Source: Candidatus Methylacidiphilales bacterium (lineage in GTDB: Bacteria; Verrucomicrobiota; Verrucomicrobiia; Methylacidiphilales; Verrucolacustridaceae). From it: a DNA stretch of 64,000 nucleotides. A model generated the notes under the pieces. It had not been told where the DNA came from and did not search any database. It saw only the letters and a list, made by a program, of their open reading frames with translations. The stretch covers positions 14,563-78,562 of the forward strand of contig JBIKTM010000005.1 in NCBI GenBank assembly GCA_044348085.1, read 5' to 3'. The translations under genes were made by a program, and so were the position numbers. Below are positions 15,044 through 20,898 of this stretch, piece by piece. How positions within the stretch are numbered: position 1 is the first letter of the stretch; each line of letters opens with the position of its first letter.

Positions 15044-16411
15044 ATGGCATTTCGGTTTCCATGTTTGCTCGGGTTGATCTGCTTCAGCGGGGCTTTTGCC
15101 CAAGAAGGTAGTGTTCCTGTCTTTCGCTTAGGCATCGATGTATTAGCGGATCGGGGTTTTCAGGATTTGAGGGGAAAGCGGGTAGGGTTGGTGACGAACC
15201 CATCGGGAGTTGATGGGAAGGGAGTGCCGACTTGGCGAAGGTTCCGGGATGCTGAAGGCGTAAACTTAGTGGCTTTGTATGGGCCAGAACACGGGGTTTT
15301 TGGGAAAGTTGGTGCGGGAGATAAAGTTTCGGGTGAGAGGCACGGAGAGGATCAAAACCAAGACGGAAAAATTTCGAAGAATGAAGAGACGGGGATCAGG
15401 GTTTTCTCGCTCTATGGGGATACGAGGAAACCCACTCCCAAGATGCTGGATGGTGTCGATGTGCTGGTTTACGACCTCCAGGATGTGGGGTGTAGGTCGT
15501 ATACGTATATCAGCACATTGGGGTTGGTGATGGAGGCAGCACAGGAGAGGGGAGTCGAAGTAATGGTGTTGGATCGTCCGAATCCTCTAGGAAACTTTCG
15601 CGTGGAGGGTCCGCGTCCGCAGGGAGAAGGAGTCCTGACCTCCTTTATTGGGCAGTACGACATTCCTTATGTGTATGGGCTTACGGTAGGGGAGCTTGCC
15701 AAATGGATTAACGAAGTTCATTTGAGGCGCCCGTGTAGTTTGTCAGTGATTCCCATGAAGGGGTGGAATCAGAAGATGACTTGGGAGGATACTGGACTGA
15801 AGTGGGTTCCCACTTCACCCAATATTCCGATCACTCGTTGTGCGCGAGGGTACGTCGCAACTGGGTTCTTTGGGGAGTTGGGCGTTAGCAATGGAGCCAA
15901 TCCAACGGGAGTACCCACGACGGGGTTGGATGGAACGGTGGTTCAGCCGTTTGATATCTTTGCGCTCGAGAATGTGGATGCGGAGGAGCTTTGTCGGAAA
16001 ATGACAGAGTGGGGATTCAACGGGGTTAAGTTCACTCCGTTTCGCTTCAAACCGCCGACGGGTAAGTATCGATCCGTTGTCATGGCAGGGGCACGAGTCG
16101 CAATCGATCCGCAGGCTCCAGCTAATATTACGGCCATCAATATGGCGGGTCTGGAGTTTCTGAAAAAGCTTTTACCCAAAAAGAGGTTTTTCTCGGATGC
16201 GGAGAATATGTTGATGTTTGATAAGCTGAATCGAGGCCGACAGACAAGGAAGGCAGTTGAGGGGGGGATGAGCGCAAGGCAGATTGTGGCCAGTTGGGAT
16301 GTAGGTGTGGCTAAGTGGCGAGAAGAGAGAAAGCCGTACTTGCTGTATCCGGAGAGTCCATTGCCGACACGAAAAGTCCCGGCCACGGGGTCGGCAAGGC
16401 TCAAGCCGTAA
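15044..16411 (+). CDS. namZ: Exo-beta-N-acetylmuramidase NamZ (DUF1343) family protein, secreted
   Basis: Signal peptide; GKRVGLVTNPSG, YGPEHG, SLYG, DLQDVGCRSYTY, VLDRPNP, YGLTVGELA, WVPTSPNIP. Confidence 0.88.
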   Translation: MAFRFPCLLGLICFSGAFAQEGSVPVFRLGIDVLADRGFQDLRGKRVGLVTNPSGVDGKGVPTWRRFRDAEGVNLVALYGPEHGVFGKVGAGDKVSGERHGEDQNQDGKISKNEETGIRVFSLYGDTRKPTPKMLDGVDVLVYDLQDVGCRSYTYISTLGLVMEAAQERGVEVMVLDRPNPLGNFRVEGPRPQGEGVLTSFIGQYDIPYVYGLTVGELAKWINEVHLRRPCSLSVIPMKGWNQKMTWEDTGLKWVPTSPNIPITRCARGYVATGFFGELGVSNGANPTGVPTTGLDGTVVQPFDIFALENVDAEELCRKMTEWGFNGVKFTPFRFKPPTGKYRSVVMAGARVAIDPQAPANITAINMAGLEFLKKLLPKKRFFSDAENMLMFDKLNRGRQTRKAVEGGMSARQIVASWDVGVAKWREERKPYLLYPESPLPTRKVPATGSARLKP

Positions 16412-16416
16412 ATTTA

Positions 16417-16544
16417 GGTAGGGGCGGGTCTATAACCCGACTTTTCTGAGGGGTTTAGAAGTGCTATAAAGCATTGAAGAGGATGGTGTTAAAGAGGGGA
16501 TTAGGAAAGATGGAGAGATTTGAAAACGCTGCAAAAAAGCGAAG
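16417..16544 (+). repeat. Repeat A, copy 1 (5' of the Sel1 gene)
   Basis: By-hand ungapped alignment of 16433-16530 with 18917-19014 gives about 78/98 identities; starts with GTAG plus a CGGG..CCCG mini-hairpin. Confidence 0.9.
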
Positions 16545-16606
16545 TAAGAGGATTAACCTGTTTTTTTCAGTTCGCTACGGAAGAACTAGAAGGTAATGAA
16601 TTAATA

Positions 16607-17953
16607 ATGGAGCTAATGATTTTAAGAGGATTTGCTTTTCTCTTGTTCCTTGTCACATCCTCCCATTCAGAAGAAAAATATGAACTACAGAGCTATTCAC
16701 CGGAGCTTCTGAAAAAAGCAGAATCTGGAGATCCTAAAGCGCAGTTTTTGGTTGCAAAGTATTTACGGCTCGGGAAAGGAGTTTCTAAGAATGAGCACGA
16801 GGCCATAAAATGGTATATGCAAAGTGCCAAGCAAGGTCATACAAAATCCATGAACTCCTTGGGCGGGTACTATCTAGAAAATAAGGTTGATTCCCCGGAG
16901 ACAGATGCAGAAATCGCTAAAGCATTGCCTGAGATGTCATTCTCAATAGCGAAGAAAGATAAGAAGCAACCTCATAATCTTGAACAAGCCGTTTATTGGT
17001 TTTTCTTGGCGGCAGACGGAGGGAATCCACGAGCAAAAAGAAATATTGGTTTTTTATACAGTAAGGGGATTGGGCTGGAACAGAGCGATATTGATGCAGT
17101 TAAATGGTGGAAGGAGGCCGCTTTGGAGGGCGAAGTTTCTGCTCAATGTAATCTGGCCAACGCTTACCTAAATGGACGCGGATGTGAAAAAAACGAATCA
17201 AAAGCATTTGAGCTCATGTGTATGGCCGTCAACAAAACTCCCCAAGATGAAATCGACGAAAAAAATATAGCTGATGCTCAGGCCGAATTAGGTCGCTATT
17301 ATTATGAGGGTATAGGAACCAAAAAAAATCTAAACGATGTTTTCAAGTGGGCTACAAAGTCTGCTCAAAATGGATCAGCAATAGGTCAAAACAACCTTGG
17401 GAACGCTTATTACAATGGTTATGGAACCGAGAAAAATATATCTAACTCAATCATATGGTATCAAAAGTCAGCTGCACAAGGGAATGACGATGCCATGTAT
17501 CAATTGGGCTGGTTAAGCGCAAATGGAATCGGCCTTGAGAAGTCCAATGATAAAGCTTTTAGCTATTACAAAAAAGCTGCGGATAATGGAAACCGTGAGG
17601 CTCAAAATAACCTAGCTAACCTTTACTCAAAAGGGCTTGGCGTGCAAAAAAACGAAGCGGAAGCATTTCGTCTCTGGTTGAGATCATCTCTACAAACAAA
17701 CACCTTTGCGTTTGCGAATTTAGGTTTGTGCTATGAAAAGGGGACTGGTGTTAAAGTTAATATTTCCGAGGCCTTTCGTTGGTATGAAAAAGGCGCCTTG
17801 GCCGGTGAGCCAAGCGCGGAATACTATTTAGGCAGATGCTATGAAAGTGGTAATGGTGTTGATAAAAATCTAGATACGGCAAAGCAGTTGTATCTTAAGG
17901 CGGCGGACCAAGGGCTTAAGGAGGCAAAAGAGGCATTACGGAGCCTCGAATGA
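16607..17953 (+). CDS. Secreted Sel1-like repeat (SLR/TPR) protein
   Basis: About ten repeats of type AQxNLGxxYxxGxGVxxxxxxAxxWYxKAAxQG; hydrophobic N-terminus after M30/M33 of the ORF; AT-rich (sample line 17221: 24/60 GC). Confidence 0.92.
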   Translation: MELMILRGFAFLLFLVTSSHSEEKYELQSYSPELLKKAESGDPKAQFLVAKYLRLGKGVSKNEHEAIKWYMQSAKQGHTKSMNSLGGYYLENKVDSPETDAEIAKALPEMSFSIAKKDKKQPHNLEQAVYWFFLAADGGNPRAKRNIGFLYSKGIGLEQSDIDAVKWWKEAALEGEVSAQCNLANAYLNGRGCEKNESKAFELMCMAVNKTPQDEIDEKNIADAQAELGRYYYEGIGTKKNLNDVFKWATKSAQNGSAIGQNNLGNAYYNGYGTEKNISNSIIWYQKSAAQGNDDAMYQLGWLSANGIGLEKSNDKAFSYYKKAADNGNREAQNNLANLYSKGLGVQKNEAEAFRLWLRSSLQTNTFAFANLGLCYEKGTGVKVNISEAFRWYEKGALAGEPSAEYYLGRCYESGNGVDKNLDTAKQLYLKAADQGLKEAKEALRSLE

Positions 17954-17989
17954 GAATAAGTGTCATCTGAACGCTCCCATTCCTCAACC

Positions 17990-18120
17990 AATCCCCAACA
18001 AAACCCGTAGCAGAGAGGCCTGGCGGCCGAACCAAGTGGAAGGGGGCAGGTGGAAGGTGAAAGTTGGAAAGACTTTAAATTGACTGCGGCCTTCCACTTT
18101 CCACCTCCTGCCTTCCTGCA
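17990..18120 (+). repeat. Repeat B, copy 1: long imperfect hairpin 3' of the Sel1 gene; possible bidirectional terminator
   Basis: GGAAGGGGGCAGGTGGAAGGTGAAAG (18038-18063) pairs with CTTCCACTTTCCACCTCCTGCCTTCC (18091-18116); second copy at 19934-20071. Confidence 0.88.
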
Positions 18121-18163
18121 AAGCGAAGCGGTTGGGAGCTCCGAATATTCAGTCAGCTACAAA

Positions 18164-18433
18164 TTAGCGAAACAGATCGGAATGTGTGCCAGTGCGTTCT
18201 AAACGTAAATGTTCGGCAGAGGCGGTATAAATCAGAATCCAATCAGGCTCGATATGGAGATCACGGCATCCCACAAACTCTCCATGAAGAGGATGGTCTT
18301 TATAGATTGGTGGTAGAGGTGCGGTTTCGATCAAAAGATCAATGACCTTCTTGAGTTTCGAAAGGTCTTTGCCTCTCTTCTGGGCTCGTTTGACGTCTTT
18401 CCTGAATGCGGTGGTGCTACTAACGGATCTCAC
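18164..18433 (-). CDS. yafQ: Type II toxin, YafQ family (RelE superfamily mRNA interferase)
   Basis: 89 aa; FRKDVKR, DHPLHGEFVGCRDLHIEPDWILIY, RTGTHSDLF; 4-nt overlap with the antitoxin. Confidence 0.93.
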   Translation of the reverse strand: MRSVSSTTAFRKDVKRAQKRGKDLSKLKKVIDLLIETAPLPPIYKDHPLHGEFVGCRDLHIEPDWILIYTASAEHLRLERTGTHSDLFR

Positions 18434-18690
18434 AGGCCAAGGTGGCGATAGAGGTGCTTCTTCGATTCATGGTGCTTCACGCCTTTACCCTTTCGGCTGT
18501 CCCGAAGAACTTTGGCGGTTTGCGCGTTGGGCAGCGCTACCGCAAAGGGAAGTCCGCGGTGGAGCTGGATTTGGTGAAAGAGAAGCTGAATCGCATCCGA
18601 AGCGGTCATTCCCAGTGAGGAAAGAATTCTTTCCGCTTGGGTTTTTACGGTAGGGGTGATCCGTGCGCGGATGGTGGTAGTTTTCAGCAT
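18430..18690 (-). CDS. dinJ: Type II antitoxin, RelB/DinJ family
   Basis: 86 aa; IRARI..VKTQAERILSSLGMTASDAIQLLFHQI..HRGLPF...PNAQT; upstream of yafQ. Confidence 0.92.
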   Translation of the reverse strand: MLKTTTIRARITPTVKTQAERILSSLGMTASDAIQLLFHQIQLHRGLPFAVALPNAQTAKVLRDSRKGKGVKHHESKKHLYRHLGL

Positions 18691-18696
18691 GAGTTA

Positions 18697-18721
18697 ATTG
18701 TGGCGCAAATGTAGCTACAAG
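18697..18721 (-). promoter_or_regulatory. Probable autoregulatory operator/promoter of the TA operon
   Basis: Perfect palindrome TGTAGCTACA (18710-18719) in TTGTAGCTACATTTGCGCCACAAT, immediately before the antitoxin ATG; resembles the E. coli relO layout as recalled. Confidence 0.6.
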
Positions 18722-18902
18722 CAAGCGGTTGTTTTATCATGCGTATATTTTGGCTGCCTCTGAGATAACGGCCACTGAAGAGTCCCATCATGCTGAAGGG
18801 GTTAAGCTGTGGAAGAGATAAGTTAACTAAATTCCTCAAAATTTTACTCCTTTTACCCCTGAATCCCCAAGGGAAAGGAGTTAGCGACCCTATGCGGATA
18901 GA

Positions 18903-19029
18903 GGTAGTCGGGTGGCTAACCCGACATTTCTGAAGGGTTTAGAAAGGCTGTAACATGTTCAAGAGGATGGTGTTAAGGGGGGTATCTGGTGAGGTGGGGA
19001 GATTGGAAAACGCTATGAAAAAGCCGAAG
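18903..19029 (+). repeat. Repeat A, copy 2 (5' of the PEP-CTERM gene)
   Basis: Direct repeat of 16417-16544; GTAGTCGGGTGGCTAACCCGAC hairpin, shared blocks GGGTTTAGAA, AAGAGGATGGTGTTAA, GAAAACGCT. Confidence 0.9.
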
Positions 19030-19107
19030 ATTAGAATTTAAACTAAAACATTTTATTAGCCTTTTCGGGATATTGCGGAATTAGGGGGGTGGTGCTTAAT
19101 TTAAGGT

Positions 19108-19917
19108 GTGCGGTCGCTCTTCGCTATTTTGCTTTTTGTAGCTGTTTCGACACAAGCGGCTACGACGGCTTTTCTTGATTTTCAGCAAACCGGACAATTC
19201 TCCAATTATTTTAACGGGGATTCGAATCCTGTCTGGAGTCAGAGTTCCTCTGCCGGTGTCGGAGGGACGGGAGGAGTTCAATGGACTTTGGGGGGCTCTG
19301 ATGTCTGGGTTGCGAAGGTGGGATTTCAGCCTTCGGTAGGTTCCACATACACTCTTTCCGTACAGTACCTGTGCCAGATCAACTCTGGGTATGGGGGAAT
19401 CGGTCTTACCTCGCAAAATTCAAATCTGAATTTGGCTGGATCCACCGCCGGAGTAAATCCGGGTCTTGGCATCAGTTATCACGGAGGAGGGTTTAACCTA
19501 AACAACAATTCCGTGAGCGAGAGTGATACCCTTTGGACTTTGACTTCTTACGGTGCCAGTAAGTCCGGAAATCAGGGAATTCCTAGTCCAGGATTTGGCA
19601 GCTCGGGTAACTACTGGTCGCAACTCTCCCTCAAGATGAAGTATTTGGGCTCCAACCAATTTGAACTAACGCCAGAGGTATATGATGTAAGTCAAACTAC
19701 GGGAGCCGTTGGCTCAATGATGGCATCTGGTGCGACGCGCACTATTACAAATTCAAATCTTGGTGGAGCAAGTGTGCTCTATCCGTATTTCTCAAGCAAT
19801 GGGAGCCGTTTTGTAGGAGCTGATAATATCACTATGCCTGTCCCAGAACCTTCCGCTGTTTCGCTTCTCGCCGTTGGTTTAGGCGGATTGGCGATGTTGC
19901 GTCGTCGTCGGTTGTAA
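19108..19917 (+). CDS. PEP-CTERM surface protein
   Basis: Signal peptide, Ser/Gly/Asn-rich beta domain, C-terminal VPEPSAVSLLAVGLGGLAMLRRRRL. Confidence 0.93.
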   Translation: MRSLFAILLFVAVSTQAATTAFLDFQQTGQFSNYFNGDSNPVWSQSSSAGVGGTGGVQWTLGGSDVWVAKVGFQPSVGSTYTLSVQYLCQINSGYGGIGLTSQNSNLNLAGSTAGVNPGLGISYHGGGFNLNNNSVSESDTLWTLTSYGASKSGNQGIPSPGFGSSGNYWSQLSLKMKYLGSNQFELTPEVYDVSQTTGAVGSMMASGATRTITNSNLGGASVLYPYFSSNGSRFVGADNITMPVPEPSAVSLLAVGLGGLAMLRRRRL

Positions 19918-19933
19918 TCTTTAGTCCGCTACT

Positions 19934-20071
19934 AATCTCCAATAAAAACCGTAGCACGGGACCCGAAGACAAGTGGAAGGGGGCAGGCCCCGACGCTGGT
20001 CGGGGCAGGTGGAAGGTGAAAAAACCATAGGCAGAGCGCGACCTTCCATTTTCCACCTCCAGCCTCCCGCA
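19934..20071 (+). repeat. Repeat B, copy 2, with a nested 22-bp insertion
   Basis: Matches 17990-18120 (AATC.CCAA.AAAA.CCGTAGCA, CAAGTGGAAGGGGGCAGG, TGGAAGGTGAAA, CCTTCCA.TTTCCACCTCC.GCCT); extra CCCCGACGCTGGTCGGGGCAGG at 19988-20009. Confidence 0.88.
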
Positions 20072-20136
20072 TTCAAACTGAGCAAACCGTGAATGCCGGC
20101 CCTACTTCGCTCCTAACCCGCTGCGCGGAGGAGCTT

Positions 20137-20206
20137 CCTCCTTCGCCGAGGCTTCGGAGGACAAGTCGTAGGGCTGACGCGGCCCGATACGTAGATCGGG
20201 CCCTAC
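20137..20206. repeat. REP-like palindromic elements
   Basis: CCTCCTTCGCCGAGGCTTCGGAGG hairpin (20137-20160); GTAGGGC...GGCCCGAT-N6-ATCGGGCC..GCCCTAC doublet (20168-20206). Confidence 0.6.
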
Positions 20207-20898
20207 CTTGGTAATCCCACGGGCCAAGGAACTCGGCGACGTAAAAGCCAACCCACACCGATAAGGTCTTGGATGCCCACCCAGGCTCTGCCTGCGATGG
20301 TGTATTTGGAGACTCCTGCCCGACGAGGGCGGTGGTGAACGGGGAGTTCCCCTAATCGGAGGCCAGCTGCGCCCAAAAGAGCGGGAAGGTATCGGTGCAT
20401 CCCTTTAAAGGGAACAAGGAAGCGGGAGTCTTCCCTGCGAATAATTTTGAGAGAGCAACCGGTGTCGTGTGCCCCGTCCATAAGAACGGCGCGTCGGATC
20501 GAATTTGCAATTTTGGATGCGATCTTTTTTTGCCATGAATCCATGCGAGGAGTTCGGATTCCACAAGCAAAGTCCGCTTGATTGTTTTGAAGGAGTTGGA
20601 GAAGGGCAGGCAGATCGGCTGGGTTATTCTGACCATCTCCATCCATCATTGCTGCGAAGGGACGTGTGGCGGCGAGAAGTCCAGCGTAGAGGGCGGGGCC
20701 TTGGCCGAGATTCTTTGGAAAGTGGATGACGCGGATATCCTTTTCCTGATCGAGAAGAACAGGGGTACGGTCTTTGCTTCCGTCGTCCACCGCGATGATT
20801 TCGACACCAGGCAGAGCAGACCGGGCTTCCGTAATTACTGCGGAGACGTTTTCCTCCTCGTTATAAAACGGGATGATGAGGGAAAGCTGGGCGGACAT
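20203..20898 (-). CDS. Glycosyltransferase family 2 (polyprenol-phosphate glycosyltransferase-like)
   Basis: IIPFYNEEEN, VDDGSKD, NLGQGPAL, MDGDGQNNP, DTGCSLK, HRPRRAGVSKY. Confidence 0.9.
   Translation of the reverse strand: MSAQLSLIIPFYNEEENVSAVITEARSALPGVEIIAVDDGSKDRTPVLLDQEKDIRVIHFPKNLGQGPALYAGLLAATRPFAAMMDGDGQNNPADLPALLQLLQNNQADFACGIRTPRMDSWQKKIASKIANSIRRAVLMDGAHDTGCSLKIIRREDSRFLVPFKGMHRYLPALLGAAGLRLGELPVHHRPRRAGVSKYTIAGRAWVGIQDLIGVGWLLRRRVPWPVGLPR

Follow-up and report, generated by a model that had tools for sequence, protein, structure and literature searches.

An array of single-gene cassettes with a common leader and a tRNA-Pro-derived tail beside namZ in a Methylacidiphilales genome

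In the genome of a Candidatus Methylacidiphilales bacterium (assembly GCA_044348085.1, here G000), a 3.8-kb stretch next to the core gene namZ is best read as a two-unit array of integrase-less single-gene cassettes and a toxin-antitoxin (TA) pair, lodged in the 3' end of a glycosyltransferase (GT) gene. It lies in a 64,000-nt stretch of contig JBIKTM010000005.1 (positions 14,563 to 78,562), which was analysed as a whole and is called the window; coordinates given without a contig or locus are window positions. The units of this island come from a lake-wide pool of single-gene cassettes that have a leader (A) and a tRNA-Pro-derived tail (B) in common. We put at about 0.58 the probability that such cassettes are moved by a tRNA-type tyrosine integrase acting in trans, with crossover in or beside T-loop-like sites, and afterwards by homologous recombination between copies of A and of B. 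The island holds two cargo genes and the TA pair between two core genes:

15044-16411, + strand: namZ (exo-beta-N-acetylmuramidase, formerly DUF1343; Pfam NamZ_N and NamZ_C), left flanking core gene
16607-17953, + strand: cargo 1, secreted Sel1-repeat protein of 448 aa (nine Pfam Sel1 repeats, 249 bits)
18164-18433, - strand: yafQ toxin, 89 aa (PF15738, 112 bits; TIGR00053, 90 bits, cutoff 87)
18430-18690, - strand: dinJ/relB antitoxin, 86 aa (PF04221, 46.5 bits; TIGR02384, 61 bits, above cutoff)
19108-19917, + strand: cargo 2, PEP-CTERM protein of 269 aa with a GTG start (PF07589, 23.7 bits, cutoff 20.7; TIGR02595, 22.9 bits, cutoff 16)
20203-20898, - strand: GT, family-2 glycosyltransferase (PF00535, 105 bits; synteny), right flanking core gene

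The initial annotation of this DNA had described two unrelated secreted-protein genes, each between a repeat A and a hairpin repeat B, with a TA pair on the opposite strand between them and no recombinase nearby. Pfam and NCBIfam searches confirmed both cargo genes as well as the YafQ toxin and the RelB/DinJ antitoxin, and both repeats are real. A1 (16425-16540) and A2 (18909-19024) are 78% identical over 116-121 nt (BLAST E 1e-20 in the whole 2.03-Mb assembly, which has only three copies of A), and the two B copies have a common tail (17970-18012 and 19918-19957) followed by a long imperfect hairpin (18034-18117 and 19973-20068) that is 74% identical between them. Neither a tyrosine or serine recombinase nor a Y1 transposase is encoded in the window; the search did not extend to DDE transposases. 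The yafQ and dinJ genes overlap by 4 nt and have the sequence layout of a type II pair, a toxin with an adjacent antitoxin in one operon. The sel1 gene has a GC content of 42% against 53% for the genome. Cargo 2 has a signal peptide and, towards its C-terminus (...VPEPSAVSLLAVGLGGLAMLRRRRL), the PEP motif, transmembrane helix and arginine cluster that define PEP-CTERM proteins; it is expressed in lake metatranscriptomes with an RNA depth of up to ~70, and metatranscriptome contigs show expression of the TA pair as well. The right end of the island, first set at 20206, had to be moved to 20220, and an 80-nt element resembling a miniature inverted-repeat transposable element (MITE; 20101-20180) had been overlooked.

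That the units are modular and swap cargo, as had been proposed, is borne out by the namZ-GT site, which is empty or holds one, two or four cassettes in close relatives. It is empty in Verrucolacustris abundans MiH-22, a lake member of the Verrucomicrobiota (Methylacidiphilales) that was obtained by dilution-to-extinction culture and has a complete genome (PMC12381374), and in four more distant genomes. In MiH-22 only 19 nt separate the two stop codons, and the flanks are 92.5-96% identical to the window at the nucleotide level, as close as those of occupied genomes. One cassette each is present in G004 and G013 (loci L057 and L058), two and the TA pair in the window, and four PEP-CTERM genes in G001; the cassette of G013 (L058) is the window's own PEP-CTERM gene, with 99% amino acid identity. 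In a distant genome (L070) the site contains an 87-nt remnant. Logan contigs from four lake metagenome runs cover the window allele; those listed break at 16408/16420, and a contig in one of the four runs (X4) joins 16552 to 19071 by an A1-A2 joint, skipping unit 1 and the TA pair.

The ends of the island are defined by two short stretches:

16412-16429, + strand: left junction ATTTAGGTAGGGGCGGGT, left arm of the A1 hairpin, compared with CTACTTAGGTAGGCCGACGGGCC in MiH-22 (L069)
20203-20220, - strand: island-borne GT stop codon and last five codons, CTACCTTGGTAATCCCAC, 18 nt

On the left, the namZ stop codon occupies 16409-16411, namZ is syntenic in 14 related loci, and the same junction is present in L057, L058, L041 and L163. 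On the right, a conserved GGGCC (20221-20225) forms the boundary, and the shared sequence of high identity ends exactly there. The GT 3' end of the window is identical to that of L070 at 25 of 25 positions, against ~75% for GT otherwise and ~75-78% for the flanks, and it agrees with the empty allele of MiH-22 (L069) at only 17 of 25 positions, against ~98% for the rest of GT. As this end matches L070 and differs from the empty close relative, the last 18 nt travel with the island, whose ends are thus shared horizontally. Beside the namZ stop codon, TTAGGTAGG matches the GT 3' end of the empty allele, and by this match it is probably the displaced end of the target. A gene interrupted in its 3' end and provided with a replacement is the usual mark of site-specific integration; presence/absence polymorphism with a restored gene end, as seen here, is characteristic of integrative elements that target tRNA genes.

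The leader is found ahead of many other genes. A scan of lake metagenomes returned at least 120 contigs, and 80 loci with 89 copies of A were analysed. The ~100 open reading frames (ORFs) led by A fall into at least 57 clusters at 30% identity, so that one leader stands in front of at least 57 unrelated gene families. Cargos are usually secreted or PEP-CTERM proteins; among the matches listed, ~40% are PEP-CTERM proteins, and the others include BspA-type leucine-rich repeat (LRR) / FGE-sulfatase proteins, Sel1 proteins, a lectin-like protein and an AIPR abortive-infection protein. The LRR and FGE-sulfatase proteins form the largest cargo cluster behind A among these matches. Among the 61 genomes searched, A and B belong to a system confined to the genus Verrucolacustris: A was present in 13 of its 32 genomes, with one to five copies each, and in none of the 29 others of the family and order. 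Two patterns that would speak against modular units, A and B scattered independently over many unrelated loci and relatives with a fixed gene content, were not found in this material.

The leader was divided as follows:

16417-16545, + strand: A1 core with hairpin 1 (CGGGT-CTATA-ACCCG, 16425-16439) and hairpin 2 (~16445-16459)
16546-16606, + strand: 3' part of the A1 leader, specific to its cargo and reaching the sel1 start codon (alignment of A copies, spacing analysis)
18902-19029, + strand: A2 core with hairpin 1 (GTCGGGT-GGCT-AACCCGAC) at 18907-18925
19030-19107, + strand: promoter-like 3' part of A2 with a 32-nt insert, then TTGCGG-N17-TTAATT

A begins with a T-arm-like hairpin, continues with a conserved core of ~125 nt and runs up to the start codon as a promoter-like stretch. 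In hairpin 1 the right arm (AACCCGAC) is invariant and the left arm varies with the neighbouring sequence; the inner four pairs are kept in 23 of 23 copies and the outer ones in 11-13 of 23, around a hypervariable loop. The small hairpin 2 is kept in 22-23 of 23 copies, and one of its pairs shows two compensatory changes. Outside the hairpins the core is rich in purines, has no stable fold and closes, in A1, with a conserved purine-rich block ending in GAAAACGCTGCAAAAAAGCGAAG. From the end of the core to the start codon there are 49-57 nt in 22 of 37 non-redundant A copies, a spacing kept even between copies of different sequence. In 23 of these 37 copies a T[AT]NNNT hexamer is found 4-9 nt upstream of the start (shuffled sequences: mean 9.8, maximum 19), and 16-17 nt upstream of this -10-like hexamer there is a TTGCGG, TAGAAA or TTGAAA motif; in A2 the pair TTGCGG-N17-TTAATT ends 6 nt ahead of the GTG. 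Every forward cassette has the same ~170-nt leader with such a -35/-10-like pair beside the start codon. Judging by its sequence, the 3' part of A looks like a promoter abutting the start codon and the core like an upstream control region, and the spacing together with the hexamer suggests that this putative promoter is leaderless. We infer a promoter role for A. Metatranscriptome RNA contigs reach across A2 from 19017 and from 18876 and do not fix a single transcription start.

Three further interpretations of A were rejected. It is not a structured RNA overall, with fold z-scores of +0.4 and -1.1 and support for just the two small hairpins; it is not a general regulatory site of PEP-CTERM genes, of which only 1 of ~16 in G000 carries it; and it contains no conserved small ORF, as the reading frame shifts among copies. 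A has no Rfam match at E<=1, and scanning the island and an intact array against Rfam returned nothing beyond a weak tmRNA-like T-arm match. The motif TAAC...GTTAA, which had been likened to attC boxes, is indeed present and conserved in A, but no stem joins its two halves, which stay unpaired in single-sequence and consensus folds, and no Rfam family matches it.

Behind the cargo genes the following elements were recognised, several of the module borders being placed by eye from alignments:

17970-18012, + strand: tail of B1 (B5'), AACGCTCCCATTCCTCAACCAATCCCCAACAAAACCCGTAGCA, conserved just past the stop codon of many unrelated cargos
18017-18033, + strand: degenerate tRNA-Pro 3' fragment (t'), GGCCTGGCGGCCGAACC, aligned by eye
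18034-18117, + strand: H1, a long, imperfect inverted repeat lying where two genes converge (fold -47 kcal/mol, z -0.9)
19918-20068, + strand: B2, with tail 19918-19957 and hairpin H2 19973-20068
20090-20100, + strand: TGAATGCCGGC, left piece of the terminal tRNA-Pro fragment, which L058 has unbroken as CCATCCCGGCGGCCCGAT
20101-20180, no strand: C element, palindromic MITE/REP-like insertion of 80 nt inside the terminal tRNA-Pro fragment, which it splits
20181-20202, no strand: right piece of the tRNA-Pro fragment, GGCCCGAT, with an inverted copy, identical in L070

B had been taken for a plain hairpin repeat, and the degenerate tRNA-Pro 3' fragment inside it had gone unrecognised; this fragment lies between a hairpin and a conserved tail that begins 10-16 nt past the stop codon. 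Several cargos, unrelated to one another, take their last residues (...TNPQQNP) and their stop codon from the tail. The fragment t' stands where relatives (L045, L038) have an intact pseudo-tRNA-Pro and a perfect tRNA-Pro end (t), and the tRNA-Pro repeats of the window are degenerate throughout (18017-18033; 20090-20100 with 20181-20188). H1 has copies on contigs C48 and C4 of G000 and, from its sequence, is probably a bidirectional terminator; H2 carries a nested GC hairpin insert. The right tRNA-Pro piece and its inverted copy form the terminator hairpin of the GT gene. The idea that A and B are the ends or recombination sites of the units therefore needs to be restated: the units are modular, but most of A is an expression leader, and the att-like sequences are placed differently, as a tRNA-Pro T-arm/acceptor fragment in B and as the T-arm-like hairpin at the 5' extreme of A.

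The C element (fold -44 kcal/mol) is not found at the same point in L058 and L057. It is dispersed in G000 (C36:8409, C48:2056 and 2161, C45:16223, and contigs C1, C29 and C53), and a search of the whole assembly for a RAYT transposase that might go with it gave a best PF01797 score of 19.6 bits against a cutoff of 23. A second family of tails has the first 25 nt of B and then ...GCTACCCACACCACAGATCTTCTGTGTCTCCACAGAGAATGTGG... in place of the pseudo-tRNA; it was found downstream of cargo in L114, L117, L147, L150, L151 and L036.

The TA pair belongs to a module of its own:

18130-18171, + strand: T element, GGTTGGGAGCTCCGAATATTCAGTCAGCTACAAATTAGCGA, which gives yafQ its last Arg codon and stop codon
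18876-18901, + strand: U end, GGAGTTAGCGACCCTATGCGGATAGA, which repeats the TTAGCGA of the T end
18130-18974, no strand: portable T-yafQ-dinJ-U-A(5') module, with a second copy in MiH-22

In MiH-22 the module is at a different locus, tRNA-Pro(cgg) (L039 9571-10348), with 95% nucleotide identity over 18130-18787 and 88% over 18875-18974; 18788-18874 has no counterpart. The recurrence of TA pairs that had been suspected holds, and they recur in a fixed slot: YafQ-DinJ is present in at least 12 of the 80 metagenome contigs listed and HicAB in two, and in G013 a cytosine methylase gene and a probable restriction partner stand behind T on the reverse strand. The stretch from T to U is thus a fixed place for reverse-strand addiction or defence genes. 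In relatives T may directly abut A (L045 9794-9973), and among the matches listed the left neighbour of the A hairpin is U in ~48 of 85, T in ~26 of 85, a pseudo-tRNA in ~6 and the namZ site in ~4. Chromosomal integrons contain TA pairs that stabilise them, and by analogy the pair may stabilise the arrays described here.

The natural home of the units is the 3' end of tRNA-Pro genes, where they stand in tandem and each of them ends in a partial tRNA-Pro copy. In relatives the order is tRNA-Pro, linker, T, optionally one or more reverse genes and U, then A, cargo, tail, a pseudo-tRNA-Pro of ~110 nt, the perfect 29-nt tRNA-Pro end t, linker, T and so on. Such arrays sit behind both tRNA-Pro genes, cgg and ggg, their units separated by the partial tRNA-Pro copies, and t forms direct repeats between units in L037, L038, L045, L047 and on contigs C40 and C48 of G000. 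In genomes with core genes 93-96% identical, the number of t copies ranges from two in MiH-22, which has the real genes only, to eight in G013. Small inserts and hybrid joints fall exactly in the T-loop, directly after GGGTT. In G000, the third A-cargo-B unit is at the start of contig C48, after a tRNA-Pro 3' fragment, H, T and a reverse-strand gene, and the end of contig C40 has a true tRNA-Pro(cgg), an att remnant and T. These two ends form one locus in a complete close relative, so the G000 array lies behind tRNA-Pro(cgg) and is broken in the assembly; at tRNA-Pro(ggg) G000 has remnants only.

Further observations concern the same loci. The cargo of the third unit (G000 C48:1338-1940, L003) has a VHL-beta domain (PF01847, 36 bits), eukaryote-type like Sel1. 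A recurrent mini-insert of ~95 nt (GGCCCCCTAAGAC...GGAAT) sits in the T-loop of the pseudo-tRNA-Pro, between GGGTT and CAAATCCC, at G000 C48:100-252, L038 8478-8600 and metagenome loci such as L097, L119, L120, L132 and L157. An att remnant of ~95 nt (X) stands behind both tRNA-Pro genes and another tRNA (reverse complement of G000 C40:122-200 and C4:134091-134170; L021 ~1440-1530). Its 3' end mirrors the T-loop and acceptor of the preceding tRNA and, being a copy of its tRNA, marks X as the footprint of another T-loop-targeting element.

No recombinase dedicated to the units, or linked to them, was found in G000, in keeping with the initial annotation. The assembly encodes two tyrosine recombinases only, both XerC/XerD-like and on contigs other than the window's; with 116-128 bits on TIGR02249 they stay below its cutoff of 265, and XerC/XerD is their best fit, so neither is an IntI. 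The whole assembly contains no serine recombinase and no Y1/RAYT transposase above cutoff. The arrays themselves encode no integrase, and the only physical link to one is on environmental contigs L128 and L217. There, a tRNA-Thr is followed by a tyrosine integrase of 429-459 aa whose last codons are the 29-nt tRNA-Pro segment, and linker, T, A and an AIPR gene come immediately after it. A third contig, L218, is 98.8% identical to these through the integrase up to ...GGCGGCCC and unrelated beyond, which places a recombination breakpoint in t, beside the integrase. Here t may be an attR or an attI-like capture site. Homologs of the L128 integrase, 50% identical, are at tRNA-Arg and have no tRNA-Pro segment. 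Derivation of the pseudo-tRNA region (P) from the 3' end of the integrase gene was rejected, the similarity being no higher than in shuffled sequences.

To the right of the breakpoint, L218 (10148-16416) carries a reverse resolvase gene and genes for BspA-type LRR, FGE-sulfatase and HNH proteins. The tRNA-Thr(tgt), which the environmental integrase with its tRNA-Pro segment adjoins, was not found in the G000 assembly (93% complete). Another integrase family, int-V (402-404 aa, weak PF00589 match), is encoded beside tRNA-Leu, tRNA-Ser or tmRNA (L037 1279-4110, G024:C5; L078 4691-9154, G002:C6). At its far end TTGTTT iterons run into a tRNA-Pro fragment that is reversed and truncated, and two genomes have this joint at the same base; it could be a chimera of metagenome-assembled genomes (MAGs). 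G000 has an int-V remnant of 54 residues (C8:5344-5505).

In the reading we prefer, a tyrosine integrase encoded elsewhere would insert and excise the units by crossover in or beside T-loop-like sites; both the enzyme and the crossover point are what we infer. The namZ-GT locus would be a secondary site, at which the element restores the gene end that it interrupts, and the arrays would then be reshuffled by homologous recombination, A copies recombining with A copies and B with B. The circular joint predicted for the window island is ...CTACCTTGGTAATCCCAC-GGGYC-TATAACCCGAC..., and circles of tRNA-Pro units would have the joints P-left/A-right or t-linker-T.

Several observations weigh against this reading. 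The remnant in L070 is an internal deletion and not a clean excision, and the ancestral spacer has lost 23 nt in every occupied allele. Where the G013 allele departs from that of the window, the breakpoint falls inside A and not at the hairpin, a position that points to homologous recombination. The hypervariable loop of the A hairpin would be unusual for an overlap region. No integrase was found beside any array in the 13 genus genomes, G000 having only XerC/D, and the host of L218 is from outside the genus Verrucolacustris. Three patterns, including A and t-linker, gave 0 matches in a viral contig collection, which leaves no trace there of a phage or satellite vehicle. No circular or excision joint was seen in the read data, which consist of assembled contigs only, with circles and rare variants beyond view.

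Some of these points fit better with a system that has no dedicated mobility at all, an explanation that we consider unlikely while granting it real weight. A and B would then be conserved untranslated regions of a fast-diversifying family of secreted/PEP-CTERM genes, changed by homologous recombination (A with A, B with B, or through flanking core genes after DNA uptake), duplication and illegitimate recombination, and the tRNA fragments would be relics of unrelated elements. This would account for the ~40% of cargos that are PEP-CTERM proteins with near-identical C-terminal tails, for PEP-CTERM coding remnants behind some non-PEP cargos, for the breakpoints of G013 and the window inside A, for the population variant with an A1-A2 joint and for a genome without an integrase. 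New leader-cargo junctions for 57 unrelated families are, however, beyond homologous recombination, and the island ends are identical despite 22% divergence of the flanks, with the identity ending at one base. Site-specific integration classically leaves such traces as the replaced GT end and the partial-tRNA repeats, and an integrase gene does end in the same tRNA-Pro segment, where two contigs part.

A bolder proposal, to which we give a slightly smaller chance, is a second and independent integron-like capture platform, in which a tyrosine integrase with its own recombination site in its last codons captures and shuffles single-gene cassettes. As part of the same claim, the site would be a mimic of the tRNA-Pro T-arm/acceptor, and the cassettes would be ready to express, bounded by T-arm-like hairpins and equipped with the standard leader. 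If true, the integrase-less arrays of Verrucolacustris are deposits of that system.

It is improbable that the arrays are fossil islands, each unit being what decay has left of a different full-size integrative element, formerly with an integrase of its own, without any movement of cassettes and with the likeness of A and B merely reflecting a single element family. The integrase remnant at G000 C8:5344-5505, the degenerate tRNA fragments and the frequency of internal deletions such as that in L070 all agree with it, and it corresponds to the published model of tRNA-linked island growth (10.1101/2020.12.28.424599). Decay would hardly leave units that are uniformly of one or two genes with borders a few nucleotides from start and stop codons, no intermediate with an integrase inside the unit was seen among ~115 copies, and the same TA module is present in many arrays at different loci.

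The two remaining explanations are both very improbable. A chromosomal integron or CALIN, with attC-bounded promoterless cassettes moved by IntI, the analogy first drawn for this island, is suggested by an array of small AT-rich genes, an inverted TA cassette and the TAAC...GTTAA in A, but fails on the lack of IntI, of an attC-like fold and of an Rfam match and on the 170-nt leader that every cassette has for itself; for G000 it is refuted unless an IntI lies within the unassembled 7%. An assembly or binning artefact, in which repeats joined the wrong contigs of a MAG, would fit contigs C40 and C48 breaking inside repeats and unitigs breaking at 16408/16420 (most comparison genomes are MAGs as well, and the arrays break assemblies), but the namZ-A junction and the island ends recur in the independent assemblies L041, L057, L058 and L163, and Logan contigs from four lake runs support the rest of the island, though not spanning the namZ-A junction.

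Streamlined planktonic bacteria are dominant in lakes and have large pangenomes and almost no classical mobile elements, which leaves the source of their flexible genes in question. The cassettes offer a candidate route to such genes, and a testable one, in an abundant freshwater verrucomicrobial genus with a cultured representative; genomes with no integrase of their own are likely to acquire new surface and defence genes in this way. Dozens of unrelated genes for surface proteins and defence use one leader and one tRNA-derived tail, at tRNA-Pro genes and at a protein-gene 3' end. How cassettes arise, a problem known from integrons, thereby becomes a question for a second system unrelated to them, and experiments can now start from defined DNA sites and a candidate integrase.

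The system had been called unrecognised, and its kind is in part known, from tRNA-linked additive islands with partial-tRNA repeats and from integrase-less att-flanked elements. In Prochlorococcus, tycheposon islands grow beside tRNA genes by successive integrations that leave partial tRNAs and remnants (10.1101/2020.12.28.424599). The arrays resemble them in having flexible genes beside a tRNA (tRNA-Pro is among tycheposon targets), tandem units, partial tRNA copies, degenerate remnants, rare or transient integrases, a streamlined planktonic host and adaptive or defensive cargo. Unlike tycheposons, the units here have one or two genes and no integrase or replication module, one ~170-nt leader and one tail are common to all, a tRNA-like pseudo-gene precedes each repeat, the secondary site is in a protein-gene 3' end that the element restores, and no link to viral particles was found.

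The cis-mobilizable elements (CIMEs) are flanked by att sites and have no integrase (PMC5704250, PMC6323972). Our units are likewise att-flanked, bounded by t or T-arm-like sites, with cargo only and no recombination or transfer genes; they stand in tandem at the 3' end of a tRNA or other gene, and a related integrase is presumed to move them in trans or after accretion. A CIME usually derives from one integrative and conjugative element (ICE) by deletion; CIMEs are few per genome and have no standard expression leader, whereas the pool described here is large, with at least 57 cargo families, and no ICE or conjugation genes were seen with it.

Like integron cassettes, the units are single-gene with very short non-coding margins, a huge diversity of cargo and interspersed TA pairs, some inverted; a hairpin-type site stands at the cassette border, and the tail can supply the stop codon. 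Unlike integrons, they have no IntI, attC or common Pc promoter; each cassette has its leader, the sites derive from a tRNA T-arm/acceptor, and the arrays are at tRNA-Pro. The system thus works like an integron in several respects and belongs to the integrons by none of the tests applied.

Cassette hot spots maintained by homologous recombination, such as the minimal mobile elements of Neisseria and the replacement of capsule or O-antigen loci, also have variable content between conserved flanks at one site and need no element-encoded enzyme. They use conserved flanking core genes, whereas here the conserved parts travel with the cargo to several loci and the ends are att-like tRNA fragments. 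Five differences therefore set the cassettes apart from known systems: the size of the units, the standard leader and tail, a pseudo-tRNA in each unit, the reverse addiction/defence slot and the secondary site in a protein gene.

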